NCBI GenBank assembly: GCA_008632985.1
Contig: QPGO01000063.1
Coordinates: 310,001 to 374,000, forward strand
Direction of reading: 5' to 3'
Length of the DNA stretch: 64,000 nucleotides
DNA from: Psammoneis japonica
Lineage: Eukaryota
Every line of letters starts with the position of its first letter. Position 1 is the first letter of the stretch. The translations under genes were made by a program, and so were the position numbers. Under the pieces are notes generated by a model that ran no database searches, had not been told where the DNA came from, and worked only from the letters and a program-made list of their open reading frames with translations. Positions 6,063-49,516 of this stretch are shown here, piece by piece.

Positions 6063-6174
6063 GGTTAAGGGTTTTCTCCCCAACATTTGGGTTTCCCTTC
6101 TATCCTCATCCATTGGAATTTAAATTTTTTGAGTCCCGCATGATTCTCGACACTCGAATCATGGAAGGGAAGAG

Positions 6175-9843: not shown

Positions 9844-10013
9844 GTTGATGATGTGCTCCAAGTGTGAAGGAGGAGATGCGTTCGTAAAATTGCCTCTTTT
9901 TCTGTTGGCGATCATTTGCATTTTCATTGCAGCACAAATTTGCTGCAGAGCTCGCACGTAGAATTCTGCGGGCCCAATGTCACATGGAGTCCCACCTGGG
10001 ACTGGAACCCATC
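9607..10013 (+). mobile_element. MITE family A (about 400 bp, TIR GACG.GTTCCAG, 4-bp TSD ACAA)
   Basis: gacgcgttccag...ctggaacccatc flanked by ACAA on both sides. Related copies lie at 9281-9514 (truncated), 58427-58832 and 63302-63697. Confidence 0.85.
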
Positions 10014-13800: not shown

Positions 13801-16800
13801 TTTGCCCACAGAAGAAACATCAAATGCCCAAAATGCAGCAAACTGACAAATGTGCTAAAACAGAAGCCCTGCACTTCATTGATGCTCAGACTTGCTTGTT
13901 GTTGACATGATCTCTGGATCAGCAGCAGATTGTGCTCAGGACAGGCCCTCCTCCTTCCAGCAGCTCAGCATGCTGATGCCACTTGTTCTTGTTCCACACA
14001 AACAAAAAAGAGCTTCAATTCTGGGGAGCTGTTTCATCAAGATTGGCACCCAATTTTGGTTGGCTTCAAGCTGCAAAGCTGCATTGTGGCATGCAATGGG
14101 GAGTGAACCTGCCCCCGCACTCACAAATCTGCCCTGCTGGATTTGACAGATGAAGGCAGCAGTGAATGAAGAGGATCCAAGAGGACAGCTTCCACCTGCA
14201 ATGGCTCTTGTCAAAAAACAATGGCTTCAGCCACCGGATCAATCGGCGGATGAGTTTTGGGTCACAGCAAGAGCCACTTTGGTTGCTCTGAGAGGTTTGC
14301 TTCTGTGGCAATTCAGACCACAACCGATTCTCCTGTCCAACAATGTTGCAAGAGCTTGTGCAAACAACCTGCTGGCATGAGTGGACGAGGCATGCTGAAA
14401 CTAGCTACACTGCAGGTGTGCACATTCCAGCTCTGGCAGTGGCAGCTCTCAAATTGTCAGTTTCACACTGCAGCAGTTAAGGCCTCAAAACGCCTTCAAA
14501 ATCACTGTCGTTGCATCACAAGAGTGTGAAAAGGATGGCAACCAACACGTCACGAACATTCAGACACCATCTCTAGACATGAATGTTCCTGTTCCTTCCC
14601 AAAAGATTGGCGACAAAGGATTTGCCAACCATTCAGATGTTGGTGCACCGGCATGATCAATCGTGCAAGAAGCATCGTGACCTGTTCTCCCAGTGCCATT
14701 CTGCCATTCCGACCAAGCTTTGTAAAACTTCCACAGAGCACAGGTCAAACAATTGAACAGATCATCACATGAATGATCTAGAGTTCAATGCTGCTTTCAA
14801 AGTGGAGAGAATCCAAGGAACCCTGGTTGCCACGGAAGCTTTGTTTCTTGCTCAGCCCATCAGTTCTTGAAAAGATTCTCACATCCAGGCTTGACTGGGG
14901 CCACCCAGCTCTCTTTGGATGCACCCAGCACAGCTGGGGACACAGAGCTTAGTCTCTGGTGCAATTCTCTGTGGCTGTCGAGTTGTCTCCACACAAAGCT
15001 TCAATGCACTGTTGCAGCCAGGGCACTTGGCATTTTGACTCTTGTTCTGTGGCAGAAGCATTGAGAGTTGAGTGCCAGATGAGCAAAGAGCACAAGACAT
15101 GGAAAAAGGGAGCACACAAAGCAGCTTGCAGTGTGCTTTTTCTGGTGGCAGCAATCTTTGTGTGTGCAGGTGTGCATGTGTTTTATGACTGATGCACATT
15201 TTTGCAAAAATCAATGCTGCATCCACAACAAGCCAAAGGCCCCCCACCCAAACACCCCGGGTGCTGTTGCATCAATCAGATCTCAGCAAGTTTGATGGAA
15301 ATGAGATGTGGGTTCATGGCCACACATCATGCCAAATGTTGAAATGGGCTGTGGCTTGGCATGGCATGACTGCAGCATTGGAGATCAAACATGAATTTCA
15401 AACTGCCAGCTGATTTCCAGGGGGGCATCTTCCAAAATGCCAAGTCCACATCAACCCCTGTTGTGTTGCCCAACATGCCCAAGACAACAACAGCTTGTCC
15501 ATGAGCCATTCAATGTGCTGACAGTTGAGCCGGCTACTCTGTGTGCACATGGTTGTTTCAGCTGTTTGCCATCATTCTTGTTTGACAGCAACAACTTGCC
15601 ACTGCATCATGTGGTGTGATGGCCACCCTGTGCTGCACAAAAATGGCATCACCCCCAATGAAAGCAATCAGGCAATGACACAATTCTGTCATGGCCAACA
15701 AAGTGCATGCCAAACCATGCTTTCAGACTTCCAAGTGGCAGAGCGGGCTTGCAGTGTGGCTCAGAAAGCCTTTGTGAATCACAAAATTCTCCAGTGAAAG
15801 AATTCACAACCTTGGAGGAAGAAAAAATGCCAATTGGACCCGGTGCAATGATGTCAATTCTTGCAAGAGAGATTGTGAGATGCTTCATGAAAAGCTGCAA
15901 GCAAAGGAGATGGTTGTGGCTGCTTTGATGAGCCAATGCATTGAAAAGCTGAGAAAGTGAGACAAGCTGCTTACAGAGCTCAATGTGCCAAAGAGGAACA
16001 TGGTCAACATTTTTCACTGAATCAAAGTGTTGGAAGAGTTGTTTGTCAGTGCCAAGCATTTGGTCAATGTGCAGCTCAAATTCCTCCTGAAGATCATGGT
16101 CACCTGTGCCATGCAACAATCATGATGGGAGCATGTGGAGTCATCATTGCCACAGTCATGTCACTGTAAAGCCCTGGGTGGCCCTTCTCCCCATGAAATG
16201 CTGCTTGCAAAATGCCACAATTCTCAACTGTGGCAATGAGTTTGACAACTGTGCAGTGTTTGCAATGCCAGTCAGAGAGTGCCTGCAACAACAGCAATGA
16301 TCACCTGGCAAGACAAAAAAACGGCACTGCCACAAACTTCTCACACAGGTTCAAGGAGAGCACCATTGGTCTCAGATGATTTTGACAGCTCATGCCTTCC
16401 TTGTGAGGCAAGCTTCCCCATTGAAACAACTGAAAAGTGCCACAACAAGGGAAACTCTTGCCATTTCATGAGTGCAGAATCTGGCACAAAGAGGCCCTCT
16501 TTGCAGCCTGGCTTCATTTTTGTCCCTGGCAATGTCTGGTGGCCTGGGGGTTTGTCACAAGCATCTTCACAAGTTTGGCTTTGGAGGGTGTGGTGCTGCA
16601 GAGACAGTGTGGTGTGACATGAGTGATCAGGACAAACTTCGGGTGGGTGGGACAAACAAACAATGTGCCAGGACCTCTGCACCTGACATCTGCACAATGA
16701 CCAATTTTTTTGCATTGCTTGGCAAAACACCTGCACGCACCTCATCAACTTTTTGAAGACAAGCTGTGCTCATTGCCAACAAATTTGGGTTGAATTGATC

Positions 16801-17270
16801 TGGACAAAGCTCAAATTCCTGTGACATTGCAAGGCACATGGCACAATTGTGCACACCTTGGTTCATCACTCAATTGTGCTGTTTTGCCCCAGATGGGGAC
16901 AAGATCATGAAGCCCACTCATGGCTGCCACTCCTTTTGTCACCGTGCTCCAAGCAACTTCTGGCTGCTGGTCCTTGCCCCACCTGGCTTTGTCTGTCAGG
17001 CAGCACGCCCATCTCAAAGTTGCTTTCCAGCTGATCTTGAGGTCCTTGCTGTCTGTCTCATTTGCATCTCCCTCCTCATCTTGAGGTTCTTGCTGTCTGT
17101 CTCATTTGCACCACCCTCCTCAGTTTGTGATTGAGTTTCCTGTGCAACTCATCATCATCAATGTCAGAGGGGCCAGGGATTGCTTGGGGTGCAGCCTCTT
17201 TGACAGGTTGGGTTGGTCTGCCCTCATCCACCCAGGTTGCTTGGGGGGTTTGCTGACTTTCAACTGCTCT
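10900..17270. other. Heavily eroded TpA- and CpG-depleted relic sequence, family not assignable by eye
   Basis: Only one TA in 13201-13800. Fragmentary protein-like stretches occur on both strands. Confidence 0.6.
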
Positions 17271-17274
17271 GGTG

Positions 17275-18330
17275 CCCCATGTGTGCACTGGGCGCTGAAA
17301 AGAAGATGTGTCACGACCTTGTCGTTGTGAAAATTGTGAGCTAGTTTAGAGCAGAGAAAGTGGGATCGTGCGAATGGGGAATCTTGCCAAATCCCCATTC
17401 GTTCGCATTTGGATCGTATCAAATCGATCGTGTGTTTGCATTGTGGATCGTGCGAATCAAGCCATCACGCGCTGTGCACGAGTGATGTCATCGTGTGGAA
17501 TCACGCCACCATCGTGGGCCAGACGACGGGCTAGTGTGCTTCACACGGATGCTCTCTTAGCATCCTCCTGGAATTTCCTAAGACCTAGAGCCATGCCCTC
17601 CTGTGGTCGTGCTTCCCAGGTGCGTGTTGACAACACTGCGTTGTCATGCACAAGAGGCTCATGCACGGTCTCACCATGTTGTCCAGCAGCGAGGCATGCT
17701 GCACACTCCCCCATGATCAGGGCCGTCAAGTGACAGGATGTCTTGCTGGTGACAGGGTGCAATCTGCCGTAGATTGTGCGCATCTGTCAGCGCTCCATTC
17801 TGGGTGCGCAACGTGCCGTTGTCATGTGCACGGACAACTCTGGCGGGTCCTGCATGGCTGTCAGAACTGCATTTAGAGGATTGCTCCTGTTTGACAAGTG
17901 CCAATTGCCCTGCGGCACATTGATGCTCCTTGCGTTTCTGATTTTCACGCTTGTCATTCAAGTGGACAAGCTTCTGCTTTCTGGTTTCTGTGCACTTCCA
18001 CTCAGCACGATGGGCAACAGATGAAACCGCATCGCGTCAGGATGCTAAGAGAGCATCCGTGTGAAGCACACTGGCCCGTCGTCTGGCCCACGATGGCAGC
18101 GTGATTCCACACGATGACATCACTCGTGCATGGCGCGTGATGGCTTGATTCGCACGATCCACAATGCGAGTGCACGATCAATTTGATGTGATCCAAATGC
18201 GAAGAAACAGGGATTTGGCAAGATTCCCTGTTCGCACGATCCCACTTTCTCTGCTCTAAACTGGCTCACAATTTTCACAACGACAAGGTCGTAACACATC
18301 TTCTTTTCAGCGCCTGGCACACACACAGGG
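17275..18330. mobile_element. MITE family B with about 290-bp TIRs; TA TSD mutated to TG (left) and CA (right); Tc1/mariner-like
   Basis: 17275-17566 is the reverse complement of about 18040-18330. Flanks are TG (17273-74) and CA (18331-32). Confidence 0.85.
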
Positions 18331-18393
18331 CACAGCAACATTGCTCCCGCATGTTGTGCGAGGTGACGAAATCTGCAGAAACGAAACTACAAA

Positions 18394-19470
18394 ATGTTGG
18401 CAGGACCAACAAATCTCAAAACGACCATGAAGAAGCGGATTGAGCCGCCGATTCCGTTCGCACGGCCGGAGAAGAAAGAGCTGCAGCAGGGTGAGCACCA
18501 GACGTTCAAACTGCGCAACAACCCCACTGATCCGGATGGTCCAACGCACGAGATGGGCATCCCACACCTTTCTGCGGCTACATGCGAGACACTCCCAATC
18601 TTTCTGCGCAACGTGGATCGCGTGCACAAAGGACAAAACATGACGACCGGGCCAGCGAAATTTGCCCTTGTGCGTGACCTGTTACAGGGCGATGCTCTGA
18701 CGTCATTCAACAATGCCGCTGACAAGCAGGCATCCCAAACCAATGCTGCGTGCGCAGCATGCGTCGCGAAGCTAAAGGAAAGTGTCTTCCCACATGGGGC
18801 GGTGCCATTGCAGAAGCGTCATCTGAGGCGCTTCATGCGCAAGCCCGCAGAGGTTTCTGCTCATGACTGTGTCACGAGGGCTGTTGAAATTAACGGCCAC
18901 ATCTCTCAGTTTCCACCCGTGACGGAGGATGGAGAAGCACCGGCACCATTGCCCAATGACGAACCATGCGACATGTTCGAGTGCGGTGTGCCGAACGCAT
19001 GGCAGAAGTTCATGATGTTACAGAATTTTGACCCGTTGGCACATGCCATCGCCGAATTTGCACAGTTCTGCAAGTGCATCGAGCAGGTCGAGCTTGCCGA
19101 AGGTGACCTGGACCAACACACTAAGATTCCACGCAAGCGGGGACGTAGAACGGACAATCCTGAGTCGTTGATCACGACCCAACGGAACACCCAGAAGTCG
19201 TGCATGCCACACGGGACCAACTGTGGACATCACACGGAGGATTGCCGTCAGCTCAAGCACCACGTGAAACGTGTCAAGACTGGACATTCCAATGACGGAG
19301 GCAGCAAGCCCAATGCAAAACCTCAGAATGAGGAAGACATTGGTGCTCTCATCGGATCAAAGGTCGAGGAGTTCTGTGCCAACGCTCAGAAAAAGCGCAA
19401 GGCACGCGAGGAGGAGCTCAATCACTTCCGCGACCTCAACTCAAGTGATTCCGAAGATTCGGACACCTGA
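18394..19470 (+). pseudogene. gag: gag of second Ty3/gypsy
   Basis: 358-aa ORF with CHHC knuckle CMPHGTNCGHHTEDC and no Tyr residues. Confidence 0.8.
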
Positions 19471-22100
19471 GAAGGGGGCCGACATGACACAGGTGGTTTT
19501 GGGCACATTGGGTGAATGCACTGATGAACAATTGAATTGCCATCGTACACGTGTTGTAGGCCAATCCCGCAAACGAGTTAAAAAGACTCATCTTGCTCCA
19601 ATCTTGTTTGTGGCTGTGAACACCAAACATGGCAAGGGCAAGACTCAAACCATCAAGGCACTGCCAGACAGTGGCGCCAGCAGCACTGTGCTTGACAGTC
19701 GATGCTGCAAGCATTTGCGAAGCCGTCCAACGGCTGAGACAAACTGGGCCATGGCAGCAGGCTCGTTCAGCACGTCTGACGACTGTGCCGTTAAATTTCG
19801 GTCACCAGAATTGTCCGAAACTGCAGAACCAAGGTGGTGCAGGTACAAAAGTGGGCCAGATTCTGCGCACGTAGAGACTGGCATGTTTTCTACACAAATC
19901 GCCAAAGTCGGCTCGCCAACTTGAACCCTCTCCAGGACGATGGAAACTTGGACATTTCACGTGACAAAGTGTTTGGACCACCCAGTTGCACTTCCCTCGA
20001 CTTGTTTGTGAAGAGAAGTCACAAGTTTCCATGGGTTTCTTGTTTTGCACTGCTCTTCAAAACTTGAACGTCGCGATTTCGGCACCTTTCTGATTAGATT
20101 CGTTGCACATCCTCAGAAACCTGTGAAAACTTGTAACTTCTCTCCCTGGGCAAGTCGAGGAGAGTGTAATGAGCAGGTCGAAACACTTTGTCATGTGAAA
20201 TGTCCAAGTTTCCATCATCCTGGAGAGGGTTCAAGTTGGCGAGCCGACTTTTGTGATTTGTGTAGAAAACATGCCAAGCTCTACGTGTGTAGAATCTGGC
20301 CCACTTTTGTGCCTGCACCACCTCAAACATGCCGTCCACGCACACAACGGAAAGTTGGGCAAGTGCAACATGATCATTGGACGCGACATTCTGGAGACAC
20401 AAGGCATTGACATTGTCTTCTCTAAACAGTTGACAGAGTGGCCATCAGTCAATGGAGAAGTGCCAATGAAGCACACGGATGCTGCGGTAGAAACCTCCTT
20501 CTATCTTCAAGATCCAGAAGCCTTGTCTTCAGAAACCGACCGGATTTCACGCATTTCAGATGCTGAGCACGCGCCTGCCTGCCTCGAGGACATAACACAA
20601 GGGACAGCGGGACTTTCTAAAGTTCAACAAAATGACCTTTTGGCACCATTGAAGCGCCACGAGTCCTCATTTGATGGGACATTGGGAGAATGGAAGGGAG
20701 AACCCCACCATGTCCAACTCAAGAACCATGCCACGCTCATCCGCATGAAGTGCCTCGTGCGTGCGAAGCTGTGATGCACTGTGCAAAGAATTGGAATGCC
20801 TGGTGCGTGTCGGTGTTCTCAAACGCGTCAACCGATCCCAGTGGGCAGCTCCATCATTTGTCACACCGAAGAAAGATTTGACGGCATGCTTTGTCATTGA
20901 TGATTTGAGAGAGCTGAATAAACGGATCAAGCGATCACCTTATCCGATTCCTCACATCCAAGACATGCTACTTAGGCTCGAAGGCTTTATGTGGGCCACA
21001 TCGCTGGATTTAAACATGGGCTATTATCATATCCGATTGGATGCTGATAGCAAGAAGCTCTGCACGCTCATCTTCCATTGGGGCAAGTATGAGATGCAGG
21101 TATTGCCCATGGGATTATGTAATTCGCCAGACATTTTCCAAGAACGCATGTCAGGCTTATTTGAAGATCTATCGTTCGTTCGAACGTACTTAGATGACCT
21201 TCTCGTCGTGACGAAAGGCACCTATGAAGATCACCTCAACAAACTTGAAGAAGTTTTATTGAGGGTCCAGAAAGCAGGACTAAAAGTTAACGCAATTAAA
21301 TCTCATTTCTGTCAACCCCAATTAAAATACTTGGGTTATCTGGTCAACAGAGACGTAATACGACCAATACCTAATAAAGTCGACGCCATTAAGCGAATCG
21401 CGACCCCAACCAATAAACGCGACCTACGGTCATTTATTGGTATGGTGAACTACTACCGTGACGCGTGGATTAGACGTTCTGAAGTCTTGGCTCCGCTAAC
21501 ACGACTCGTAAGCGAGACTGTTAAGTGGGAGTGGACGTCCGTTGAAGACGAGGCGTTCGAAACCGTTAAACGGGTGATATCGGATGATGTTTTATTATCA
21601 CATCCTGATTTTAATAAACCCTTTGAGATACATACCGATGCCTCTAAATATCAATTGGGAGCAGTTATATCCCAATATAATAAACCTATCGCCTTTTATA
21701 GCAGAAAGCTTAACAGTGCGCAATTAAATTATACAACAACGTAGAGAGAATTGCTCGCCATTGTGGAGACGTTGAAAGAATTTCGAACGATTCTCCTCGG
21801 TCATCGTATACTTATATATACTGATCATAAAAATCTTACGTACAGAGTATTCAATACCGAGCGCGTTATGCGCTGGCGGTTAACATGCGAAGAATACGGT
21901 CCCAAATTACGCTATGTTAAGGGTACCCATGACCTAGTCGCTGACGCTCTTAGTCGCCTTCGGCTAGCACCCAGCTTGCCTTCCGAGGCCAATCCGGATG
22001 TAAAAGACACTCCATCAAGTCGTCCTTTGCATGAAGCTTTTAATGCAGATGCGCAAGACGATGCATCTCTGCCTGTTGGCTTCAAGTGCATTCAAAAAGA
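19471..22100 (+). pseudogene. pol: pol of second Ty3/gypsy (MITE insertion, frameshift near 20750, TAG at 21742-21744)
   Basis: LDLNMGYYHI, LPMGLCNSP, YLDD, LGYLV, AFYSRKL, NYTTT*RELLAIVE, YTDHKNL and VADALSRL. Confidence 0.92.
19833..20322. mobile_element. MITE family C (about 490 bp, long TIRs GGTGGTGCAGG...), possibly PIF/Harbinger-like
   Basis: The arms are reverse complements over more than 140 bp. Removing 493 bp restores the protease frame, consistent with a 3-bp TWA-like TSD now reading CAA/TCA. Confidence 0.85.
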
Positions 22101-22500
22101 AGATGTGCTGCGACCTTGTCGTTGTGAAAATTGTGAGCCAGTTTAGAGCAGAGAAAGTGGGATCGTGCGAACAGGGAATCTTGCCAAATCCCCATTCGTT
22201 TGCATTTGGATCGTGTCAAATCGATCGTGCATTCGCATTGTGGATCCTGCGAATCAAGCCATCACGCGCCATGCACGAGTGATGTCATCGTGTGGAATCA
22301 CGCTGCCATCGTGGGCCAGACGACGGGCCAGTGTGCTTCACACGGATGCTCTCTTGGCATCCTTCTGGAATTTCCTAAGACCAGAGCCATGCCCTCCTGT
22401 GGTCGTGCTTCCCAGGCACGTGTCAACAATGCCACGTTGTCACGCACAAGAGGCTCACGCACGGTCTCGCCGTGTTGTCCAGTGGCGAGGCATGCTGCAC
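22095..22500 (+). mobile_element. Truncated copy of MITE family B left arm
   Basis: Aligns to about 17298-17704 and lacks the terminus. Confidence 0.85.
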
Positions 22501-23940
22501 TGGGATCAATGCAGTCAGCACAGTCAGCCCTGATCAGATGCTTTCTAGATGGGAGTGCAAGTGTCACTTCTTTTAGCTTCTGGCATGGCCCACGCACCTT
22601 GTCAGCTTGATCCTGGTGGTGACTTGCCAAATGGCTTGAGGGCATTGTGCTCCAGTCCCCACGGGGGGGAGCAGATTGTGCTGCACGCATGCACAACCCT
22701 GCAGCACACTGGCACATTGAAGATTGCAGCATTTGTTCATTTTCATTGAGGGGGGTCATCCCCGCGTTCATCCTAAAATTGCCGTTGCATTTGAACAAGG
22801 TTTTTTTACAGTGTTCATTTTTGAACACAAGAATCATTCACAGTCACACCCGATCGCGCACGAAAACGAGAACCATCAACACCGCGATCGAAGCACGACA
22901 ATGATGACAATCATCGACATTTCTCAAAAACGCAGTTTGCCGTCTGCCAACTTTTCATGCACGTGCAATCTTTGACACACAACAAACATAAAATAAATGA
23001 GAGTTGGCAGACGGACCACCTCCGTCACAGACTTGTGGCTTGTTGTTTTCACCACCACGGTGAAGCACGGTGAAATTCAGGAAAAATCATGCAAAACAAG
23101 CCATTCGGCCGAATTCGAGCTAAAAAAAGCAGCAACCTGCCACCCTAAGCACAGATGCTTGCAATGATGTGTGCAGCACATTGCAAAGCCGATGCTGGGA
23201 ATGCTCTCTCCACACCACTGCACTGACCTGTGGTGCACTCAAAGCCATGCTTTGGGTGGCAATCCCAAGCTCATTGCAAGCTGGCTTCAGGAGTTTCTGC
23301 CACTCTTGTGCACTGTTTGCATGACCATTTGTGCTCATCTGGGACCTTCTTGCACATGTTGGTCTTCAACTGCTGCAATGCAGCCTGCCCAAATCTCATG
23401 ATGTTTCTTGTCAATCTGTCTGACAACCTCCAACTTGCTGAAGTGGAGCAGCGCTGCATTGAAATTTCTGGGCTCCAGCACCAACCTCTTCTTGTGGAGC
23501 TCTTGAAAGAGTCTTCCACTGTGCTGATTGCTGACCTGGTCATTCTGCCTCCAGCACACATGTGGAGAGTTGTGCAAGAAAGGGCACTCCACCACACACG
23601 TTTCTCTCAAGAAGTTGAAGAAGATTTGCATTGGTTGGCTTGGCAATTGAGTTGACTCTTGCTTTGCACAGCAAACCAAGTCTTTCAGCTGGAAAAGAAC
23701 TCTTTCTTGGTCCAGCCATTTGCAGCACATGCCTGATTCAATTTTTTGCCTCTGCCATGTTGAATCTTTCCTCCTTGCCTCCACTTGCCAGTCATGTTGA
23801 AAAGCAATTGATGAATTGATGCTTGTCATTCATCAGAAAAGTGCTGTTTTGTTTTTGTTGTGGTTTTGTTGCCACGATTTGAACATTGTCACTGATCATG
23901 GTGGCACTGGACACCGGTGCTGGACAGAACCACTGAGATC

Positions 23941-24117
23941 GAACCAGCAAAAGATCCTGTCCGTGTGTGTTGGTTTGTCTGCAAAATCTTTTTTCGCGTG
24001 ATCTGGAGTCTTGCACAATTTTGTGTGACTGACAACTTGTCCCACAATCTGGTTGGGTCAAACAAGTCAAATTTGATGGCTGGATTTCATTCAAATCTCT
24101 GCATCAAAAACACACTC
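23941..24117 (+). repeat. Degenerate duplicate of the RAD52 upstream region (24857-25035)
   Basis: Shared blocks tgtgttggtttgtctgca, caatctggttgggtc and tggatttcattcaaatctc. Derived changes include tttaacgg>tttgatgg and gtcgaacgag>gtcaaacaag. Confidence 0.8.
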
Positions 24118-24119
24118 CT

Positions 24120-24833
24120 TTCATTTTTTGCCTGCTTTGCATGTTTGCGCCGTGATGGTGAGTTCACAGCACCGTGCTTGTTTTGGTGCACTGGGCTGAT
24201 TCTGCCAGTGCTGGCATGACATCATGTTGTGTGCACCACACACTGGAGTGAGCTGCAAGTGTGGGAGCTTTGAGCTGTGGGACCTGGTGCCTCTTCATTG
24301 CTGCCAGCAGAGCACCAGCTTTGTCATTTGATCACTCCAACTGTGCTGAGGGCACAAGGACAGGGCTCTTGTTCTTGATGCTGTGAGTCACAAGGTTTGT
24401 TCTTCTCTTTTCACCTCTGCCCTGCAATGAGTGCATCTAACTTTTCAGAGGACTTGCCCTTGGCAAACACTTCCAGTTCTTTTTTTCCCTGGCTGCTTCG
24501 ATGACAACATGACAAGGACTGATGCTGGCTGGATTGCCGGGGTGGCTCATCTTGAGGTTTTTGAATGACATGCAGAACAGAGCTCTGGAGATGGCATCTT
24601 TGTTCACATTCACTCCTCCTGCATGAAGCAATCTCGAATTGAAAATGCCGCAGCATCCCGCAGGCAGCACTCTCCAAAAACAGGGGGTGCTGTCCTCAGC
24701 AAGCAACACTCTGGGCTCTCGTCACCATCAGGAGGAATCAACTCTCATCCTTGAATGATTTATGTGCCTTCTGAGTGTGAGTGCCAGGCAACCATGCGGT
24801 TGGTCCCATGTCTTCCGAGACATCTTGAAGTGA
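24120..24833 (-). pseudogene. Partial duplicate (3' third plus 3' flank) of the PhyH gene at 32978-34150
   Basis: Aligns to about 32708-33403 (LPAGCCGIFNSRLLHAGG...EKLDALIAGQR*) with frameshifts and TA>TG/CA, CG>TG/CA changes. Confidence 0.93.
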
Positions 24834-24903
24834 TCATCATCACGATCAATCGATCAAAACAGCAAACGATCGTGTCCGTGTGTTGGTTTGTCTGCAGAAT
24901 CTT

Positions 24904-24911
24904 TTTCGCGC
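24904..24911 (+). promoter_or_regulatory. Candidate E2F site (TTTCGCGC) upstream of RAD52
   Basis: Matches TTTSSCGC about 180 bp before the ATG. The motif is short and could be chance. Confidence 0.3.
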
Positions 24912-25086
24912 GATCTACCAATACAAATAAATCGCGTCTAACCGCCGCGACGACGACGACTCCTCAATCTGGTTGGGTCGAACGAGTCAAATTTAACGGT
25001 TGGATTTCATTCAAATCTCGCAATCAAAAAACTCAAAACATGCAACCGACAACGGACACCGGCGGTGGAACATTTTAGCGTTGACA

Positions 25087-26602
25087 ATGTCCAACGTCAC
25101 AAATCTGACGGCAGCGTCATGTCCCACCTCGACTACTCCAAGACCGGTACATCAAGTGTCGGCAGAAGTTGCTGCCATGGAGTCACACGCCAAACAAACG
25201 TATCGTCCACCGGGAAGTCAACATTCCGCAATGTCGTCGGAACATCAACACGCTGTTCCGGTAGAATTGGTACGAAACGCCGATGGAACTCCGCTTGTTG
25301 ATTCCAAGGGTCAAATTGTTTCCGTCGACAAAATTTTGGCGACAAAACCGCTCCGCCATGAGTTGAGCAGCCGTCCGGGTCCGGGAAATCGCAAACTCAC
25401 GTACTTGTCGGGCGAAGGTGTGACTCGCACACTCAATGACATTTTTGGGTACAGCGGATGGAATCTCGACATCAAATCAACCAAGCGAGAAGAATGCGTC
25501 AAGGACGACAAGGGACGCTATCATGTGGCGTATACTGCAACGGTACGATTGACCTTGTGCAAATCGGGAGCGTACAAGGAAGACTGTGGGGCGGGAGATG
25601 CAATCGATCGGTCTTTGGGAACAGCGGTAGCGAATGCACTCAAGGCTTCCGTGACGGATGCTATGAAACGAGCAGCGAGGCATTTTGGTGATAAGCTTGG
25701 GAATTGTGAGTGCAAATAATTGATTCGTAGTTGTCGTCGTGAATAATTACATTATTTCGCTCACGTTCTTGATATCTTTTTCTTTCGGATTCTCAGCTCT
25801 CTACAATGGAAATTTCAGCATGAACAAAGCACCCACCTCTCTTCAAAATGCTCTCGACCAGTATGATATCGATCGAGCCAATACAAAGTTTGGGTTTCCA
25901 AAAGATCGTGTTGCAAAGGCTAATGTTCAGACAAATAACGCTTCGACCGTACAGAAACAAACTAATACCTCCCAGCAAAAAACCGGCAGCTCATCTCAGG
26001 CTCCAGTCACTTCCACCCCAATCACTGCGACTACAAAAACAAGTGTACTCAAGCCACCGCCGGCACGTGTCAGCATGGGAAACACTGCCAGCAGGCAAGC
26101 TCTGCCATATCAGCCGACACCGGGCCCTTCCGACAACCAAAACAATCGTCCAATGGTCACGCCTCAACCACCACAAACTTCGCAATACCAGAAACCCACT
26201 ACTGTTGGTATTAAAGTTCCTCAGTCAAAGCCACCACCACCACCACAACAACAGCAGGGCCAACCCAAGGTTCCTCCCTTTCAGTCAAAGCCGACAAGTA
26301 TGAGCCAGTCGAATACTACCCAATCGCAATCCATCAAACCCATCTCTGCTCGAGAAAGTCTCGAGTCAAGTGGTCTCTTTGATTTGTCCATGTTTACAGC
26401 CGGAACCAAAACGACGGCTCTGCAAGGCAACAATGAAAATATTCACCCATACGACATGCCTCGTCCCGCCACGTCCACGGGACGGGGCCCCATGGCTGGC
26501 AAAAAGAGGACGACAGCGTCGTCTTGTCAAGAAGCAGAGACTCGCAGCAAGAAACAACCATCCGATGGGGTCAGCAATCCCTATCTTGCAAATAGTTTGT
26601 AG
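25087..26602 (+). CDS. RAD52: DNA repair/recombination protein RAD52 (exons 25087-25705, 25797-26602)
   Basis: Rad52/22 domain RPGPGNRKLTYLSG...NDIFGYSGW...VTDAMKRAARHFGDKLGN|SLY joined across a GTGAGT...CAG intron, followed by a Pro/Gln/Thr-rich disordered tail. Start codon uncertain. Confidence 0.93.
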
Positions 26603-26964
26603 CGGTGGTGGTCGACTTTTGCGCCCCTTGTGTTTTGCTGTAACGGGGTAATTATTGTGTGTGAATTCCAGCACGATTCTCCCGTCAATTGTCCAACCGA
26701 CTGGGTTTTTGGATGTGTCGCGATTTGCAGGTCCCGAGATGCTATTCAATTGCATTATGGAACTGTCTATTTCAAAGAGTGAACAGCAAGAGCAAATATC
26801 TACAGGATACCCATACTATGGACTACCAGGTATGGAGTGTGAATGTTTCTATTCCAGAGACTGGAAAAGATCCATGTACTTTGTAATCTAGCATATTTTA
26901 CTACTGGCTCCAACGAATGTATATCTACTCTAGACAGTGTTGTCTTGAATCTGTGTGCATGATT

Positions 26965-28638
26965 TCAGTTTGACATCAGCGAAGAAGTGTTTTTCTCGGA
27001 GACGTAGTTCCTTCTCGTCTTTTCGTCCATGACCTGCACCTCGCTTGGAGAAATTGCTCCAGACGCCACCATTCTCACCAAGTCCAACGATAGCTTCTCG
27101 TTTCCATCATCACTATTTTTCTCTGCATCACTTCCGCGATATACCATGGTCCCATCTATTGGATAGTATGCGTCCTTGTTCTTTTCAAACAAGGCATTCC
27201 AATCCTTCCATAGCTCCTTTCGTACATACTGCATGGGAGAACGACCCTGTTTGTCTTGAACAAGCACTTGTTGGGGGTCCACTCGCAGAATTAAATCAGC
27301 TATTGGTTCACAAAAGTTGGATGCCCATGCAGCGTGATGCAGGGGCGTCCGTCCAAACCCATCGCAGACACGCAAGCTACAACCATGATTGACGAGGCAC
27401 TCTAGAATGCAAAAGTTGGAGCGCTTGCAAACGAGATCGACAATCGAGTCACCAAAGGAATTGCGTGGGTTGGGAGACACTCCGCATTCCAAGAGAGATT
27501 TTAATAGCGTAACATTCGAGGCATTGACGGCCTTGACCATTTCTGCTCCAAAGGATGCGAGTTGCAATTGTGTTGGGGCACTGCTGTAGCCCGCTTTTGT
27601 GGTGGATAGCTTCTTGGTGCGATACCCACGCTCGTGAAGAAGGGTCATGACGTGAACATCCGGCGAGTCTTGCGCTTGTTCCAAGTTTGCTGATAACGAG
27701 TTACGAACACCACCGCCAAATACTTTAACTTTCTCAGTTTTGTGTGGTTGGTCTACCATGATTCGAGGTTGTGGGAGAGGATTCATTTTGGGAGGGTCAA
27801 TGTCGGATAAGGTAGGCCCACGAGCCACGACATCTAGAGATCCTAAGAGAGCGTCATATCTCGGGAGTTTTGACGGAGGGGGTGCTTTTGAGGAACCGGT
27901 TCTCTTGTTGGCTCGTTTCTTAGCTGTAGACGACTCTCGTGGTTTGATAGCAGCTGCCTGTGTAGCAGACGCTACTGGTTGACCAATCTGAGAAGACGGT
28001 GCTTGACTTGATGGAACTTGAGATTGAGCGATGTATGTAGGATTCGTCGGTAAATGTAGTGGAGGAGGTGCCTGCTGAACATTAACTGCTCCAGTAGAAT
28101 AGGTAGCAGGAAGAGGAGCCATTCTCTTATCGCCGACTCCATCCTCAAAGGCCCAAAGAATAGCGTCTTCAAGGGGAGAATTGCTTCTCTTTTGCACCCC
28201 TGATGTTGCAATGCGAGCAGCATCACTGGAAGGATTCTGGTTCGAAGTAGCAGACTGAGCTTGTGACTGCTGTTGTTGCATCGGTGTCGGCAAGGGAATC
28301 TGTTGAGGTGTCGCAGTGATCGGATGAGCGCCTGGTTGTTGCTGCATTTGTTGAACGTATGCCTGAAAGAAGTTCTGATAGAGAGATGAATTCTGGTGGG
28401 GTGGTATTCTTCCATCATCTTGCGGATTTGGATGCTGCTGAACTGCAGCGGTACACACAGATACAGACGTGGCTTTGGAAAGCTCCGAATCCAAAGGAGC
28501 GCCAGCTACTTGATTCATCCCGGATGTCACATGTTGAGAGCCATCTTGATCACACTCTTGACCACTCACTTTCTCTTGTTGACCTTCATTGTTACATGAA
28601 GAGTCCTCTTGTTGAGCACGGTTGTTCGTCGGGGGCAT
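26965..28638 (-). CDS. Ankyrin-repeat protein with Gln/Pro-rich N-terminus
   Basis: GVSPNPRNSFGDSIVDLVC, DGFGRTPLHHAAW and DKQGRSPMQY ankyrin-like motifs in an intact long ORF. Confidence 0.85.
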   Translation of the reverse strand: MPPTNNRAQQEDSSCNNEGQQEKVSGQECDQDGSQHVTSGMNQVAGAPLDSELSKATSVSVCTAAVQQHPNPQDDGRIPPHQNSSLYQNFFQAYVQQMQQQPGAHPITATPQQIPLPTPMQQQQSQAQSATSNQNPSSDAARIATSGVQKRSNSPLEDAILWAFEDGVGDKRMAPLPATYSTGAVNVQQAPPPLHLPTNPTYIAQSQVPSSQAPSSQIGQPVASATQAAAIKPRESSTAKKRANKRTGSSKAPPPSKLPRYDALLGSLDVVARGPTLSDIDPPKMNPLPQPRIMVDQPHKTEKVKVFGGGVRNSLSANLEQAQDSPDVHVMTLLHERGYRTKKLSTTKAGYSSAPTQLQLASFGAEMVKAVNASNVTLLKSLLECGVSPNPRNSFGDSIVDLVCKRSNFCILECLVNHGCSLRVCDGFGRTPLHHAAWASNFCEPIADLILRVDPQQVLVQDKQGRSPMQYVRKELWKDWNALFEKNKDAYYPIDGTMVYRGSDAEKNSDDGNEKLSLDLVRMVASGAISPSEVQVMDEKTRRNYVSEKNTSSLMSN

Positions 28639-31269
28639 GGATGCTTTGGGATCTCGCTCTTGGCTAACGAAACGATGCAAGGTTTGAATGTCGAGAGGAC
28701 CGGATCCGGATATTAAGTTTTTTCGATCCTCCTCGGGCTTCTAGCTTGTTTTGTTCACTGTTGGTATGAACGGAACCGCAGCGTTTCACGACAATAAGTT
28801 GTCTCTGCTCTCTCTAGCTATGGAGAGTATCTACTTGAACTCCAACGATCGACTTGGAATCACGAAGGGCAACGAATTTTCTTGGATGAAATTCGTTGTT
28901 GATTGCCTCAACGTTGCCTCTCTTCTCCGAACACGATCTGAACAATATTTGATATATATCAGTTAATATAGATTTTTATATATGACATCATCCGTCAGGA
29001 ACAGCAACTTTTGACGAAGGAAACAGCTGTCTAATTCAGTGTGACGTAGGAGCCCTAAAAGCGGGACGTCACGTTCCTGTTCTGTTCTGCGTGCCGCGGC
29101 ATGTTTGTGGCAAGGACCGTTTTTGTTCATTCTCTGGGGCCGAGGTAGAATGCGACTGTTCTGCCAGAAAATAGAGTGCCCTGGATCTCTGCAAGCATGT
29201 CAACCCAACGAGTCTCCATCCAATGCACAACTGCCAGAAGAGCAGGGGTCTTAGATCCACCAGGAGCTCCAGATTTGGGTGTCTTTGCCACAAGGAACAT
29301 TGTTGTTGTTCAGCGAGTCTGTCAAATCTGAGATGTCAAGAGAGCCTGAAGTGGCGGGCAATGCTGGTGGAGCCTTGGGAGCACAAACTGGATGGTGCAT
29401 GGCATCAGAAAACTTGCTCCAGTCCCTGAACATGTGTTGCATCATGGCAAGCATCCTCAAGCGCAGAGATGCGGTGTGCCAACAGCGACAACACACCACC
29501 TCGGTGCAATGAGCCCAAAGAGCTTGTTCAATTTTGTGGCACATCCTCTGTCAAGACAAATGACACACTTGGTCAGAAGATGCAGGACCAACAACCTTGA
29601 AGGGCACTTTTCTGGACAGCGATGCAACTGGCGGCACATCAGCGGGGTCAACCAAGGGTTTGCGGGAGGATGAGCTCTTAAAGAACACACTCCCGAAGCA
29701 GATCAACAGTGTTGTCCTTGGCCTTTGTGTGCTTGGGATCATAAAAAAAACAATCCTGCAGTTGAAGTGCTTGGTGTCTTCATGGTTTCAAGTGTGTCAT
29801 GGCTGCAAAAACAACCAAGAATGGGGGTCATTCGAAAATGTCCCAAGAGCCACAATTGACATTTAAAAAAAAAGGAAAAACACCAAATCATGTGGAAATG
29901 CACAAAATGTCACATGAGAGGGTGATTGGAGCTGCTGACTTTTTGAGAACTCAGCTGAAATGTTGTTTGATCAAAAGCACCTTCTTGATTTGCGTGGCAA
30001 AGAGCAACACCTTTGACCAGATGACATTTCACTTGATTTCCCAAGAAGTTGACATTTGACCATGGATGGACAGACAGACTGATGTCAATTGTTTCTGGTT
30101 CCCTTCCACACAATTTCTGCACAATGACTCTGAGAGCTGCAAGGATTCCCATGGAGAAAACTCCTTGACATGAGTCACAAATGGGCTGCTTGGCGGTTGG
30201 AATTGTCATGGTTGATGAGGTGTGCAACAAAACAAAACCCAAATTCTGCATTTGAGGTGCTGCTGCACTTCCACCCTGCAACTCCGGCAAAACAAGCTAG
30301 CCCACACCCCCAGCACACCAGTGGTGTGGCAGGGGCATGCAATGACTGGCCAACATTGGCACCACCACCAGGTGGTTCAAGCCAAAACAACTGGTGACAG
30401 CACAAGTGCCTCTTGCAGCAAGATGCATCAGTTGATCATGCCAGTCTGTGGGACCTGTGTGCCAATGAAATGAGCACTTCCAGGATCAAAAATGGCAGAG
30501 CAGGCTTGTTCACAGTCAGCCCACAACAAAAACCACAAAACAAGTCACTGTGGAAATTGTGGCACAGAAGGACAATGGCCTGATGAGGCCACAACCTGAC
30601 AGAAGAGTGACAGCTGAGAGTGACAAGCATGTGGGGTTACTCCCTGCGAACCAGTGACAGTGACAACCCATGTGCCAGCAAGAAAGAGTCAGAGGAAGAT
30701 CTCAGAAAGATCATCACATTGATCTCGTCCATCTAAAAGCTGCTGCCCATCATCCATGTGCAGTCTGACCTTGTGCAGGGGCAGCTGACAGCAACCACTG
30801 CTGGCAGCCAGAGTGTGGAGTTAAGTTGAGGCAACAAAGTTGACTGCAATTGCCACATTTAGAAGCTGGTTTCCACCAAAGCCAGGGCTCCACTTGTTGG
30901 ACATTCCAAGGACCCCCTTTGGAGTCTTTGCCAGACTTTTTCAAGTTTTGCACATGAGATTTTGCTGAAAGACATGGTCCTGTTCATCAACATCCTTGAA
31001 ATCATCCAAGCAGCATTGGCTCCACATTTGTTTCCACTTTTCACAACAAGAGCTTTGTGTTGAGTTCTGCAATCCATTTTTGTCAAGTCATCATTCATGA
31101 TGGAAGGCCAAACAAGAGCACATCCTTTTTAGGCATGACAGTCAAGTCGAGTTCGGCAAAGCTTGCTTGTCCCAGCTCCCTTGAGGCTCTCATCATTCAA
31201 GTGCATGAAAACTGTCAACAACCATGGTCCCATGGGTTGTTGATTCTGCATTTCAACAAAATTGTGGTG

Positions 31270-32291
31270 TTCATGCTGACAGGTGACAGCACTTGTTCAC
31301 TTCGCACTTGAGCAGTTGCTGCAAACAATCCAAGCACCGCTCGGGAATGCCCGTCAAGTTGCCGATTTGTTCCATGATTCCCATGGCAAAGGGACTTTTG
31401 TGGCACTCATCATGGCCCCAAGCTTGTTGCAAGGCATGACAGTCTGTCACCTCAGCTTCAAACAAGACCATTGTCTTGGAAGAGCCTGTAGCTTGTGCGG
31501 TGGATCACTCGCACCCAAGAGCAGCGCCCACCTCAATCAAGGTGTCACATTCCATGTCATTCAAACAGTCATCCAGCACTGCAATCTGTGGTCCATTGGT
31601 TGTTTTGTCATCATCTGATGGTTGTGACAGAATGAAAACTTTGTGCAATTTATTCCACTTTGATTCTTGGTCGGCAATGTGCTCAAACACTTTGTGAGTT
31701 CCCTTGGCTCCATGGCACAAGCGGAATGGTTGGATCCCATGATGGACATCTCAACATGACGTCCAAATCAAAACAACAAGACATGATGCTCCACACTGCT
31801 CCAGCATGAACTGGGCATTGTTTTTGCATTCCCCAACAGTCTTCCAATGGACACAGCTCTCATTGGGGTTTGTGCACACTTGTCTCACAATGCAAACTCA
31901 CAATCTGATTCCATGTGCACTTCAGGGTGCAGACAATCCAGAGTTTCAGCAACAACAAATTGAACTGCTTCATGGTTGCCATGCAGCATGACTTGTGGAA
32001 CACCCAAATCAATTGATCCATCATTGCAGGCATGCGGACAACTCTTGCGACACAAGGATCGAACGCCAGATGAAAAGGAAGCACGGCAACAACCCGCTCG
32101 TGCCCATGTGGTGCATTGGCTGCATTCATCCACGCAAAATCCAAAGGAACATGATCCACATCATTAAGATGTGGGATGCTCTCGAGACTTGGTCTCTTTT
32201 GAGCAAAGACAGCAGCCGAACCGGTGCATTGCATTGTCACTTGTTGGAACAGCAGCCAAGCAATCAGATGTTTCGTGTGCTCCGTGATCAT
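31270..32291 (-). pseudogene. Prolyl 4-hydroxylase alpha-like gene with ShKT domain, degenerate
   Basis: ShKT NESCVHWKTVGECKNNAQFMLEQCGASC (about 31770-31865), VLDDCLNDMECDTLIEVG, and IGNLTGIP...QLLKCEVNKCC (from LLKYEV..YY). Confidence 0.75.
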
Positions 32292-32977
32292 TCGCAGCTG
32301 CACTCAGCAAGTCCTGTTGCTCACAATGTCTTTATGAAGTAGATTGTTTGTTGTATTTCACTCTTAACTCTTCAACCAGGCGGCAACGATGATGACGCCA
32401 TGGCTCAAATAGAAACATGAAACATGAGCTGAAGATTGCCGATGACAGTGAGAGCGTTGGATTCGTCCAAAATTTCAATAAAAAAGTGCGGGAATCAATC
32501 AAGCGCAAAAAACCAGCAAAACTAAAAAAAAGTGAGGCAAAATGAACAACACTGTCTGTTTGCGCTTTCACTTCACGTCCTTGGTGTTTGCATTGAAGCC
32601 GACGCATCAGTTTGCGCCCCATCACTCTGCACGTCTTCACACCAAGTATGTTTCAATGAAGGTAGGGCCCTAGCTTTTATTACATTTTCAATTTGTGAAT
32701 GATTTGTTCATTTTGCCTACAGGATTTTGCATTTGCTCCGTGTCGGTGAATTCACCGCACCATGCTTATTTGCACTTGGCTACTTCTACGGCACTGACAT
32801 GAGGTATGATATGCACCACGCAATGGAACGAGCTCCGAGTGAGGGAGCTTCAAGATGGGGCCTAGAGCCTCTTCATCACTGCCAGTAGAGTATTAGCTTT
32901 GTTATTTGATCATTCTAATTGTGAACGCATGAATGGGGCTTGACACTCTCTGAGTCACAACGTTTGTTCTTCTCTCT

Positions 32978-34150
32978 TCACCTCTGCCCCGCAATGAGTG
33001 CATCTAACTTTTCAGAGGGTTTGCCCTTGGCAAATGCCTCCAGTTCTTTCCCTAACTGCTTCACTGTAAGTTTTGCATCGCCAACATCAGGATGAACACT
33101 GGCTGGATTGCCGGGGTGGCTTATCTTGGGGTTTTTGAATGACACGTAGAACAGAGCTCTGGAGATGGCATCTTTGTTCACGTTCGCTCCTCCCGCATGA
33201 AGCAATCTCGAATCGAAAATACCACAGCATCCCGCAGGCAGCATTCCAAAAACGGCAGGCGTTGTCCTCAATAAATGATCCTTTGGGCTCTCGTCGCTAT
33301 CAGGAGAAATTGACTCGTCCTTGAATGATTCATGTGTCTTCTGAGTATGAGTGCCAGGCAACCATACGGTTGGTCCCATGTCTTCCGAGATATCTTGAAG
33401 TGACACAAAGCACGTGTAGAGGACGGGTTCATCGGCCGCCAACCCTCCCATAGCACCATAAGGTGTATCCGGATGGATGCATTGTCTCTGACTACCTGGA
33501 TCTGATATTAAGCAAGAAAACTCATAGAGAACCGCATTGGGACCTAGCAACGCTTCGATAGTTGGTCGTATGGCGCTGTGGTTTACAATTTGATCGAGAG
33601 CACGCATCACAACGTCAGCTCCAAGACGTTGTACCATATCGCATCGATTGTGCTGCAACAAAACATCTGCGAAACGATATCTTTTAGGTACTTCACCATC
33701 TTCCACCTCCTGTGTAGCCTTTTCTCGCAAATTCAGCTCAAAATCCCGAAGCTCTTTTGCCAGACTTTTCGACATCACATCATCAATTCTAACCACCCCT
33801 TGCTTTCTCAGCACCTTGGCATGGGCCTTGCCCTGTTCCTTCAACAGCCTCTTCTTTCCATCTCCTTTGTTGCCGCCACCAAATCCACCTCCAGCTCCCG
33901 CGCCCCGTATTTTCGGTTTGTTTGCTTGGAGTGGTGTGTAATTTCCCATTAAGTTTTCTTCAACTTCACCGCGAGTCACAATCATTTGTTCTTGCACTTC
34001 GTAAAGTCCAAACTCAGGCAAGTTGCTGCTGGCTGTTTCAAACAAGCTCCATGATTGTCTTGACTGGAGGGTAGAAGGAGAGAAAAAGGCTCCAGAGCTA
34101 CCCCACTGAGACACAAGAAGTAGGAGCTGAAACGTCAAGAGGGTGGCCAT
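32978..34150 (-). CDS. PhyH-family 2OG-Fe(II) dioxygenase, probably plastid-targeted
   Basis: HxD (IHPDTP)...H (LLHAGGAN) and MGPTVWLPGTH motifs. Signal peptide ends SSGA|FF (ASAFAP-like). Confidence 0.88.
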   Translation of the reverse strand: MATLLTFQLLLLVSQWGSSGAFFSPSTLQSRQSWSLFETASSNLPEFGLYEVQEQMIVTRGEVEENLMGNYTPLQANKPKIRGAGAGGGFGGGNKGDGKKRLLKEQGKAHAKVLRKQGVVRIDDVMSKSLAKELRDFELNLREKATQEVEDGEVPKRYRFADVLLQHNRCDMVQRLGADVVMRALDQIVNHSAIRPTIEALLGPNAVLYEFSCLISDPGSQRQCIHPDTPYGAMGGLAADEPVLYTCFVSLQDISEDMGPTVWLPGTHTQKTHESFKDESISPDSDESPKDHLLRTTPAVFGMLPAGCCGIFDSRLLHAGGANVNKDAISRALFYVSFKNPKISHPGNPASVHPDVGDAKLTVKQLGKELEAFAKGKPSEKLDALIAGQR

Positions 34151-34238
34151 GGTACGGTAGAGCTTTATTGGTTAGGGAAACTCTAGAAGTACCTACTAGC
34201 TAGCAGTACGCGCGCGTGAAGTTCACGTGCAACGTCAC

Positions 34239-35036
34239 CTAGTGGCGCGGGGGAGGGACAGACGCGGGGCAATGGCGGAACTGAGTCATGTAGGCAGGAA
34301 AAGGGATGGATTTCGAGTTGGGGTTTGATGTTTGCGATTGTAGTTTGGTGGAGTAGCGGGTTAGTTGGTCAGCGAGCGATTTGGTAATCGCGAGGCTCAG
34401 GCTCTGTAGACCCCATTGTGACGGTGTTGAGGAGTGGCAGGTCAGGCCAAAGCGTTCGGCAGAGATGGTTTGCCAAGTGGCGGTGGCGGCAGGGAGGATG
34501 GCAGACGGGGATTGTTGGGCGTAGGCATGTGCGGCGTGGGCAGCTGAGTGTTGGAAACAGGTTTCAGTGTTCCAAGGTGGGGCAGGTGGAGCAGGGATGG
34601 GGAGGTCTTGGTTGGCGCCAAAAAGAAGGCAGTGGGCGAAGCAGCCTGGAGCTCCTGGGTGGTCGATGGCAAAGGGAATGAGGCAGATGCCGGCGTTGTT
34701 AAGGGCGGATGTGAGGGTTGCTTCATGTTGGGTCTCATGGGTTCCGTTGAACTTCCGTTTTGTGCTTGCATTGTGTGCCTCGGCATGAGGGTTGAGGGTG
34801 GGGGCAGGCAAGCCAGGAGCAGGCAATGGGGGAGGTTTAGGGACAGTGACGTCAATGGCAAGGTATCGGTGGCCGAGAGGGGAGGCAGTAGAGGCGGCTG
34901 GGGTAAGTTGGATGCGAATGAAACCAGAATTCCAGAATGGCTGGGCAGTGGGCAGCGGGCGGGCGGCAAAAACTGACATCCGTGCGCGGTTGATGGACAG
35001 GCCGAGTAGCTCTACCGGTAGAGTTTTCAGTTTCAA
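34239..35036 (-). mobile_element. 3' fragment of a non-LTR retrotransposon with restriction-like endonuclease
   Basis: LAIDVTV...KRKF...LIPFAIDHPGAPG resembles the RLE C-terminus. Partly TpA-depleted. Confidence 0.6.
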
Positions 35037-35340
35037 TTTGCCATTCGACTCACTCTTCCTTTTCGGTCTAAGACCTACTGTAGACTAGTAGAGGTAGTCA
35101 TTGCTACTAGAGGGTTAAAAGTCATTTTTACTACTTTCAGTCCCAATCGGAAAGGGAAAATCCAAGGGCTGCAGCTCAACCACGCAACGGCATCCACCTA
35201 TTGTCTCTGCGGCTAGAGTGCCAGCTCTACGAGTTGAGACTAGCCTATGTTACCACCCTAAGCTCTCCTCTACAAAAAGAAAAGAGTCATCGATTGTAAG
35301 GATGTGTCAGGAGCTCATTTCTTTTAGAATTCTTGGTTCG

Positions 35341-49500: not shown

Positions 49501-49516
49501 AGACCATTTGCTAAAT

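Follow-up and report, generated by a model that had tools for sequence, protein, structure and literature searches.

The 64-kb window, by which we mean the whole stretch of DNA analysed, is a mosaic in which genes alternate with kilobase-scale stretches that are nearly free of TA and CG and in which the observed-to-expected ratio (o/e) of TG/CA rises to ~2 (Table 1). The TA o/e was 0.38–0.52 in the genes, where the CG o/e was ~0.7–1.3, and 0–0.1 in the depleted domains, the genes neighbouring these domains being spared. One of the genes encodes a protein of the phytanoyl-CoA dioxygenase (PhyH) family, the best matches of which were diatom proteins, with 59–60% identity over ~90% of the query; the named sources of its relatives were Dactyliosolen-like MMETSP, Helicotheca, Odontella, Cyclotella and Thalassiosira. 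Because the closest relatives are diatom proteins, the window represents nuclear DNA of the diatom type. A decayed partial copy of the 3′ end of this gene lies at the edge of one of the depleted domains.

Table 1. Genes, repeats and depleted domains of the window, in order of position.
Feature	Position	Strand	Remarks
Gypsy-type LTR retrotransposon	949–6336	+	162-bp LTRs, TG..CA ends, 5-bp target-site duplication
Depleted domains	10000–17000, 23150–24900, 29300–32300, 40500–53000, 58000–62000		TA near absent
High-copy transposon sequence	17000–23146	.	Contig depth 3,700–19,900 versus ~60 for single copy; TA-poor, CG normal
Single-copy, nearly TA-free stretch	23147–24915	.	2 TA in 1.77 kb; TA-free run 23146–24438; contains L and the pseudogene
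Left direct repeat L (~175–200 bp)	23921–24120	+	Inside the depleted domain; TA 0, CG o/e 0.44
Decayed partial copy (pseudogene fragment) of the PhyH 3′ end	24120–24833	-	TA o/e 0.05, CG o/e 0.24
Right direct repeat R	24855–25030	+	Upstream of and overlapping the Rad52 ORF start; TA 5, CG 18; domain border
Rad52/22-family ORF	24997–25716	+	TA o/e 0.38, CG 1.27, normal composition; depletion stops at its upstream edge
Ankyrin ORF	26968–28740		Normal gene composition
TA- and CG-depleted domain, mostly single-copy	29200–32332		Ends ~400 bp downstream of the parental segment
Parental segment	32708–33403	-	Last 423 nt of the CDS (32981–33403) and 3′ flank (32708–32980); TA o/e 0.49
Intact PhyH-family gene (PF05721)	32978–34150	-	Pfam E 5e-12 on ORF 32981–34171
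ORF with coatomer-gamma appendage domain	35344–37203		Normal gene composition

When the window was divided into 64 1-kb windows, TA o/e was at most 0.15 in 34 of them, in 26 of which CG o/e was at most 0.35 as well, and none of the 64 was CG-poor with normal TA. The two longest TA-free runs measured 1307 and 1292 bp, the latter having a probability of ~2e-39 from base composition alone. GC-biased gene conversion was rejected as the cause, the change being confined to TpA and G+C remaining at 0.46–0.50 in the depleted domains. The Pfam scan covered 148 of the 161 stop-to-stop ORFs of at least 110 aa; the 13 omitted ORFs all lie in the gene-rich part at 32981–39318, and two of these (the PhyH ORF and the ORF at 35344–37203) were scanned separately. 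On the fully depleted domains, its sole match was a weak RVT_2 at 50621–51013. Rfam gave no matches over the whole 64-kb window, and no tandem repeats were found in 22000–34500. Between the PhyH gene and the next gene, the segment 34242–35084 is G+C-rich (0.57–0.59), with a GC skew of up to 0.39, a raised contig depth (500–1,470) and long proline/alanine-rich ORFs on the minus strand.

Contigs from two public runs were compared with the window. The contigs of run X1 contain 93% of the sampled words, and X1 may be the source sample of the assembly and thus not independent of it. Two of these contigs, 23108–24603 and 24578–25091, cover the copy with 2 and 1 other letters, respectively, at a depth of 62–68, the single-copy level observed over the genes (57–66). 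Because the X1 reads carry the TA-free sequence at single-copy depth, an artefact of assembly or polishing is excluded. Run X2, the kind of which is recorded only as 'DNA?', gave contigs confined to ORF-bearing parts (32773–34152, 35180–36999 and 26907–28741), including a gap-free contig of 1380 nt on 32773–34152 that is collinear with the PhyH gene (no intron), and thus behaves like a transcriptome of the same sample. No X2 contigs fell on the pseudogene copy, which says nothing about its silence.

Comparison of the PhyH gene with its copy

The copied extent comprises the last 423 nt of the PhyH coding sequence and ~270 nt downstream. Using blastn, 24136–24833 was aligned with 32726–33403 in the same orientation (79.9% identity, 713 columns, E 2e-135), and the homology extends by eye beyond these ends, to 24120/32708. 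The copy has acquired frameshifts and stops, and the position of the parental stop is retained. In gap-free columns, the 22 parental TA read TG (9), CA (10), TA (1) or something else (2) in the copy, and the 26 parental CG read TG (7), CA (10), CG (7) or something else (2). In the reverse direction, one TA and two CG of the copy face a parental CA. For TA, changes away from the parental state thus outnumber the reverse by 19 to 1 (binomial p 4e-5), and for CG they do so by 17 to 2 (p 7e-4); the raw dinucleotide counts of copy versus parent were 2 versus 22 TA and 11 versus 26 CG. Differing positions made up 22/44 within parental TA and 19/52 within CG, compared with 86/575 elsewhere (Fisher p 2e-7 and 3e-4, respectively), and A>G changes per adenine in the copy amounted to 19/43 after T versus 9–14% after A, C or G. 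All seven differences between gene and copy that the initial annotation had listed are present where it placed them, as are the CG>TG/CA changes that it reported alongside those of TA, which affected 17 of the 26 parental CG.

The copy also displays 55 other transitions and 31 transversions, including 9 TG–CA swaps, which are expected if fresh TA or CG arising in the domain resolves quickly either way. With a difference of 15% at positions outside TA and CG, the copy is old, and part of the TA loss is therefore ordinary substitution.

The direction of change in the coding sequence was assessed from an alignment of the parent and 40 diatom-type PhyH homologues. At residue-changing codons, the parent was nearer to the orthologues at 24 and the copy at 6, with 2 ties; a further 13 differences were synonymous. 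Three of the eight coding TA>TG/CA changes were synonymous and five altered the residue, and among these five the parent had the ancestral state at three, Tyr333 (40/40), Val260 (22 versus 1) and Ile341 (13 versus 0). Ile/Val252 was ambiguous. Codon 283 was reversed: 28/40 orthologues share the Gly that is found in the copy, so that the parental TA there is probably a later gain. For changes of the CG type, the parent was ancestral at Asp311 (40/40) and Ala320 (39/40). The assertion of the initial annotation that the pair fixes the direction thus held for 3 of the 5 residue-altering TA sites and for 24 of 32 codons, with codon 283 reversed and Ile/Val252 ambiguous. At the 3 synonymous and 11 flank TA sites, direction rests on context rather than on an outgroup: the closest single relative of the PhyH protein (P0004, 77% identity over 65% of the query) is too distant to be of use for synonymous sites, and in a metagenome scan the PhyH protein matched a single locus, which at 26% identity is too remote for a nucleotide outgroup.

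The transposon at 17000–23146 provided two further comparisons. Among the 40 differences listed between the window and the reads (155 more lie beyond those), the reads have TA at 16 and CG at 8 where the window has TG/CA, and TG/CA at 4 where the window has CG; no window TA facing TG/CA in the reads occurred among these 40. In addition, a three-copy repeat within the transposon contains sites that read TA, TG and CA across the three copies, which supports TA as the ancestral state because TG and CA are each one step from TA and two steps from each other. The PhyH proteins, the transposon copies and the three-copy repeat therefore concur as outgroups in supporting TA as the probable ancestral state.

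The parent shows no detectable loss of TA or CG. Its TA o/e is 0.49 in the copied part (coding 0.40, flank 0.63) and 0.52 in the uncopied coding sequence, compared with 0.38–0.50 in four other ORFs; the copied and uncopied parts are alike, so the shared segment is not locally lower in TA. Because selection on the coding part weakens the coding evidence, the argument for sparing is carried by the non-coding 3′ flank (32726–32980), in which the parent retains 11/11 TA and the copy has TG (6) or CA (5) at all 11. The flank had been said to keep its TA, and it does; likewise, a check for TA loss in the parent found the copied part no poorer than the uncopied coding sequence or the other genes. For the PhyH pair, only the duplicate was hit, as had been claimed; as a rule the claim does not stand, since all copies of the transposon repeats described below were hit, and the asymmetry is therefore one of place rather than of copy versus original.

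Domain borders and transposon repeats

The depletion extends over ~1 kb of non-homologous sequence to the left of the copy, the unique part of which (23150–23920) has no TA and a CG o/e of 0.12. One contig of 1497 nt joins this unique flank to the copy, and the contig depth over both (~68–74) corresponds to a single copy at present, a depth that does not give their repeat status at the time when they were hit. On the right, the depletion ends ~80 bp past the copy, with the next TA at 24916, before the Rad52 ORF. On the side of the parent, the depleted single-copy domain 29200–32332 stops ~400 bp short of the copied segment.

The direct repeats L and R form a second asymmetric pair besides the PhyH parent and copy: L has TG/CA where R has TA at 3 positions, versus 0 in the opposite direction, and where R has CG at 8 positions, versus 1. 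As a separate observation, the pseudogene is thus bracketed by a direct duplication of the region upstream of Rad52 and poly(A) is absent, and to judge from this arrangement it looks more like the product of templated insertion during the repair of a break than like a transposon or retrocopy.

The depleted single-copy flanks, the border at the upstream region of a gene and the asymmetry of the L/R pair argue for positional targeting. A RIP-like trigger would predict hits in both partners and within the shared segment, neither of which was seen, and this argues against homology pairing. Targeting by position rather than by pairing therefore appears to be the best reading of these borders. The suggestion in the initial annotation that homology pairing is not involved is upheld by the depleted unique flanks, the gene-edge border and the L/R asymmetry, but not by the transposon repeats, in which all copies were hit.

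In the transposon repeat pair 17298–17704/22095–22500, 30 of the 33 mismatched bases were of the TA/CG>TG/CA type, comprising 10 TG–CA swaps, 4 TA and 6 CG; the two members still share 23 CG and only 2 TA. For the transposon repeats, a homology trigger could still apply. Elsewhere, the tandem duplication 9189–9514/9515–9842 is 92% identical and has an inverted relative at 63302–63697 (80%), and the differences among them include many TG–CA swaps (5 and 6).

At 3 of 162 positions, the LTRs of the Gypsy-type element differ; each time TA stands against CA, and neither LTR is free of changes. Since an element inserts with identical LTRs, these changes took place in DNA, in situ, and not in an RNA intermediate. 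The TA o/e is ~1.0 in the LTRs and 0.21 in the interior, where the CG o/e is 0.93; given TA-rich LTRs around a TA-poor interior, the TA poverty of the interior must largely predate this insertion, and lineages of transposons apparently continue to multiply once they have been hit. One guess is that the TA richness of the LTRs stems from promoter constraint. The Gypsy frame (1443–6059, plus strand) has 1539 codons with two in-frame stops, both TGA (2565 and 4911), and its product contains 0.9% Tyr, 3.6% Cys and 4.1% His, compared with 4.2% Tyr in the TA-normal reverse-transcriptase (RT) fragment described next; the YIDD motif is retained. Open frames are no sign of activity here, because TpA>TpG/CpA makes no stops and removes TAG and TAA.

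Inside the TA-poor high-copy stretch lies an RT/RNase H fragment (20749–22143, plus strand) with a TA o/e of 0.9–1.15 and normal to high CG (TA and CG both normal over 20749–22050). It may have been inserted there very recently, as a nested element, or be shielded from the process. Its normal TA means that position alone is no guarantee of depletion, and this fragment and the contrast between the LTRs and the interior of the Gypsy element are both counterpoints to a position-only account.

Order, context and strand of the changes

The loss of TA runs ahead of the loss of CG. CG is normal in the high-copy element and in the Gypsy interior, both of which are poor in TA; within the copy, CG becomes frequent again from ~24500, whereas TA stays nearly absent to 24915; and a CG o/e of at least 0.6 is retained in 3 of the 34 TA-poor 1-kb windows. 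This uncoupling of TA and CG depletion suggests that two processes are at work, of which the one acting on TpA is fast and the one acting on CpG slower.

The TA that survive in the fully depleted domains are not a random sample of contexts. NTAA/TTAN accounts for 83/105 (79%) of them, versus 309/750 (41%) in normal DNA, and ATAT, ATAC/GTAT, ATAG/CTAT and GTAC together account for 3/105, versus 295/750. The younger TA-poor elements display the same ranking of flanking-base contexts, and the sole parental TA retained in the copy lies in a CTAA context. This suggests that the target is wider than the TA dinucleotide.

The outcomes are strand-symmetric, with TG at 9 and CA at 10 sites of the copy and about as many TG as CA in the domains. 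Along 24136–24833, the TA outcomes fall into blocks of six TG and seven CA followed by a mixed part (6 runs, shuffle p 0.029), which could reflect several hits per event on one strand; no clumping was observed for the CG outcomes in the copy (12 runs) or for TG/CA over whole domains (z -1.7 to +1.7), and we do not build on these blocks.

Proposed explanation and known systems

We consider it probable, on the evidence of this one 64-kb window, that the pattern reflects a regional, position-aimed TpA>TpG/CpA hypermutation of the kind described in Bigelowiella natans (bioRxiv 10.64898/2026.01.13.699255), with ordinary CpG decay behind it. The sequence shows that a piece of ~714 bp from the PhyH gene, consisting of the end of the coding sequence and the 3′ flank, was copied ~8.6 kb away to a site just upstream of the Rad52 gene, with an accompanying target-site duplication of ~175–200 bp. 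The copy sits on the margin of a transposon-bearing domain that lacks genes and in which both TpA and CpG become TpG or CpA, and together with its single-copy flanks it has lost nearly all TA and most CG. On the explanation favoured here, the TA process would act regionally on DNA in situ, as an A:T>G:C hypermutation restricted to a specific context, and would be directed to silent, non-genic DNA by position, with neither homology nor foreign origin as the cue; it would be the same kind of process as in B. natans, and the loss of CG would be ordinary decay of methylated CpG. The weakest step is the chemistry, which may be enzymatic deamination: adenine at TpA, in either strand of a DNA duplex, would become inosine and be read as G when the DNA next replicates.

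The same regional process on TpA might instead proceed through TET/JBP-type oxidation of thymine (5-methyluracil), which we regard as rather unlikely. Oxidised thymine mispairs with G, and such mispairing would lead to T>C; TpA>CpA and TpA>TpG are indistinguishable as T>C or as A>G on the opposite strand, and the same enzyme class acting on 5-methylcytosine could explain the CpG loss as well. In dinoflagellates, a TET/JBP homologue makes 5-hydroxymethyluracil, which is enriched on repeats, and its inhibition de-represses transposons, according to the accessible text of PMC11572971. However, the uncoupling of TA and CG depletion, seen in 3/34 windows and in whole TA-poor, CG-normal elements, argues for two processes.

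It is improbable that a homology-triggered, RIP-like process, perhaps involving DNMT4, hit both copies and that selection then eliminated those lineages in which the parent was damaged. Every copy of the transposon repeats was hit, as expected of such a process, and diatom DNMT4 groups with RID, its function not being known (available part of PMC9998398). However, the polarity is opposite, TpA being destroyed and not made; the parental flank kept 11/11 TA, and the copied part of the parent is no TA-poorer than the uncopied part; and the depletion runs ~1 kb into single-copy flank, disregarding the borders of homology.

An edited retrocopy, arising through A-to-I hyperediting of an RNA followed by reverse transcription and insertion, is very hard to reconcile with the window. 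The copy does span the 3′ end of the gene and stops close to where the transcript-like contig 32773–34152 ends, and a U preceding the edited A is preferred in ADAR-type editing (cited in the accessible text of bioRxiv 10.64898/2026.01.13.699255). However, the two strands are affected about equally (TG 9, CA 10), stripping is just as thorough in the L repeat and in the non-homologous flanks, no poly(A) remnant is present at the end of the copy, and the LTR differences postdate insertion. A sequencing or assembly artefact, or selection for avoidance of TA and CG in place of mutation, deserves next to no credence: modified bases can mislead some base-callers and run X1 may be the assembly's own source, but the TA-free sequence is present in contigs at ~60–70x, one of which differs from the window by 2 letters over 1497 nt, each site resolves to TG or CA, about half each, and a pseudogene has no frame on which selection could act.

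If regional, position-aimed hypermutation of TpA is the correct explanation, its reach may extend beyond this locus. We tentatively propose that diatoms, and perhaps SAR generally, possess a fast DNA-editing defence that rewrites TpA in silent, gene-free chromatin by position, not by homology or foreign origin, and that outruns CpG decay and erases TA fully. Because no stops are created, frames would stay open, and transposons would persist with TA-purged, tyrosine-poor coding sequences and TA-rich LTR promoters. In the literature searched, we found no report of TpA hypermutation in diatoms and one precedent, in B. natans: TpA-specific hypermutation was described only in 2026, in the viral inserts of this one rhizarian alga. 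The window presents the same signature in a diatom, taken to saturation over tens of kilobases. What the PhyH pair adds to the viral case is that a piece of the host's own gene was rewritten inside a domain while its source, ~8.6 kb off, was spared, which argues against recognition of foreign or duplicated sequence and for genomic position. If general, this would constitute a mutational genome defence with a polarity opposite to that of fungal RIP and a large unrecognised force on genome composition and transposon evolution in diatoms, and it would suggest that an enzyme able to edit A:T pairs within duplex DNA exists in nature.

Among the known systems, fungal RIP is established as a homology-triggered process that converts CpA to TpA and mutates both duplicate copies (cf. 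the abstract of PMC3318451). As in Neurospora and other fungi, transitions in a dinucleotide context riddle the transposon copies in the window and make up most of the divergence between repeats; unlike in RIP, TpA is destroyed (copy 2 versus parent 22), the parent is spared and unique flanks are hit. The decay of methylated CpG resembles the changes of CG>TG/CA at 17/26 parental CG and the CG o/e of 0.03–0.35 in old domains; however, it covers only the CG half of the pattern and lags behind the TA loss, young TA-poor elements keep normal CG, and methylation itself is presumed here. The 5-hydroxymethyluracil of dinoflagellates, made by a TET/JBP enzyme, is likewise a thymine-directed modification on repeats that silences transposons in another SAR lineage, but the accessible text describes it as an epigenetic mark and not as a mutator, and mentions no TpA specificity (PMC11572971). 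ADAR-type edited retrocopies differ from the present case in that here both strands are affected, the flanks are stripped and poly(A) is absent.

The closest counterpart is that of the chlorarachniophyte B. natans, in which Mettrop et al. (2026) followed integrated viral DNA in mutation-accumulation lines (bioRxiv 10.64898/2026.01.13.699255). According to the accessible parts of that report, the mutation rate in two stretches of integrated viral DNA is ~6e-7 per site per generation. Of the 231 new mutations there, 230 were A>G or T>C, and all of these fell at TpA; the larger of the two is a transcriptionally silent, single-copy region, windows that are TpA-poor and CpA+TpG-rich form 124 clusters across the genome, and the authors propose an ADAT2-like adenosine deaminase. 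Diatoms and CpG are not mentioned in those parts. The two cases differ in that the host there is a rhizarian with viral inserts, whereas here it is a diatom (a stramenopile) in which transposons, old intergenic DNA and a host gene fragment are affected; in that the NCLDV insert has a value of 0.45, whereas here the TA o/e is 0–0.1 over tens of kilobases and CpG loss follows; and in that new mutations were measured there, whereas here the changes are known from sequence comparison. In both, TpA gives way to TpG or CpA regardless of strand, only certain regions are affected and form kilobase-scale TpA-poor, CpA+TpG-rich clusters, and reverse-transcriptase sequences are among the TpA-poor ones. 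The DNA acted on in B. natans is single-copy and silent; here the flank and the copy are at single-copy depth today but may or may not have been so when they were hit. Of the 64 1-kb windows, 37 fall within the cluster thresholds of the B. natans report.
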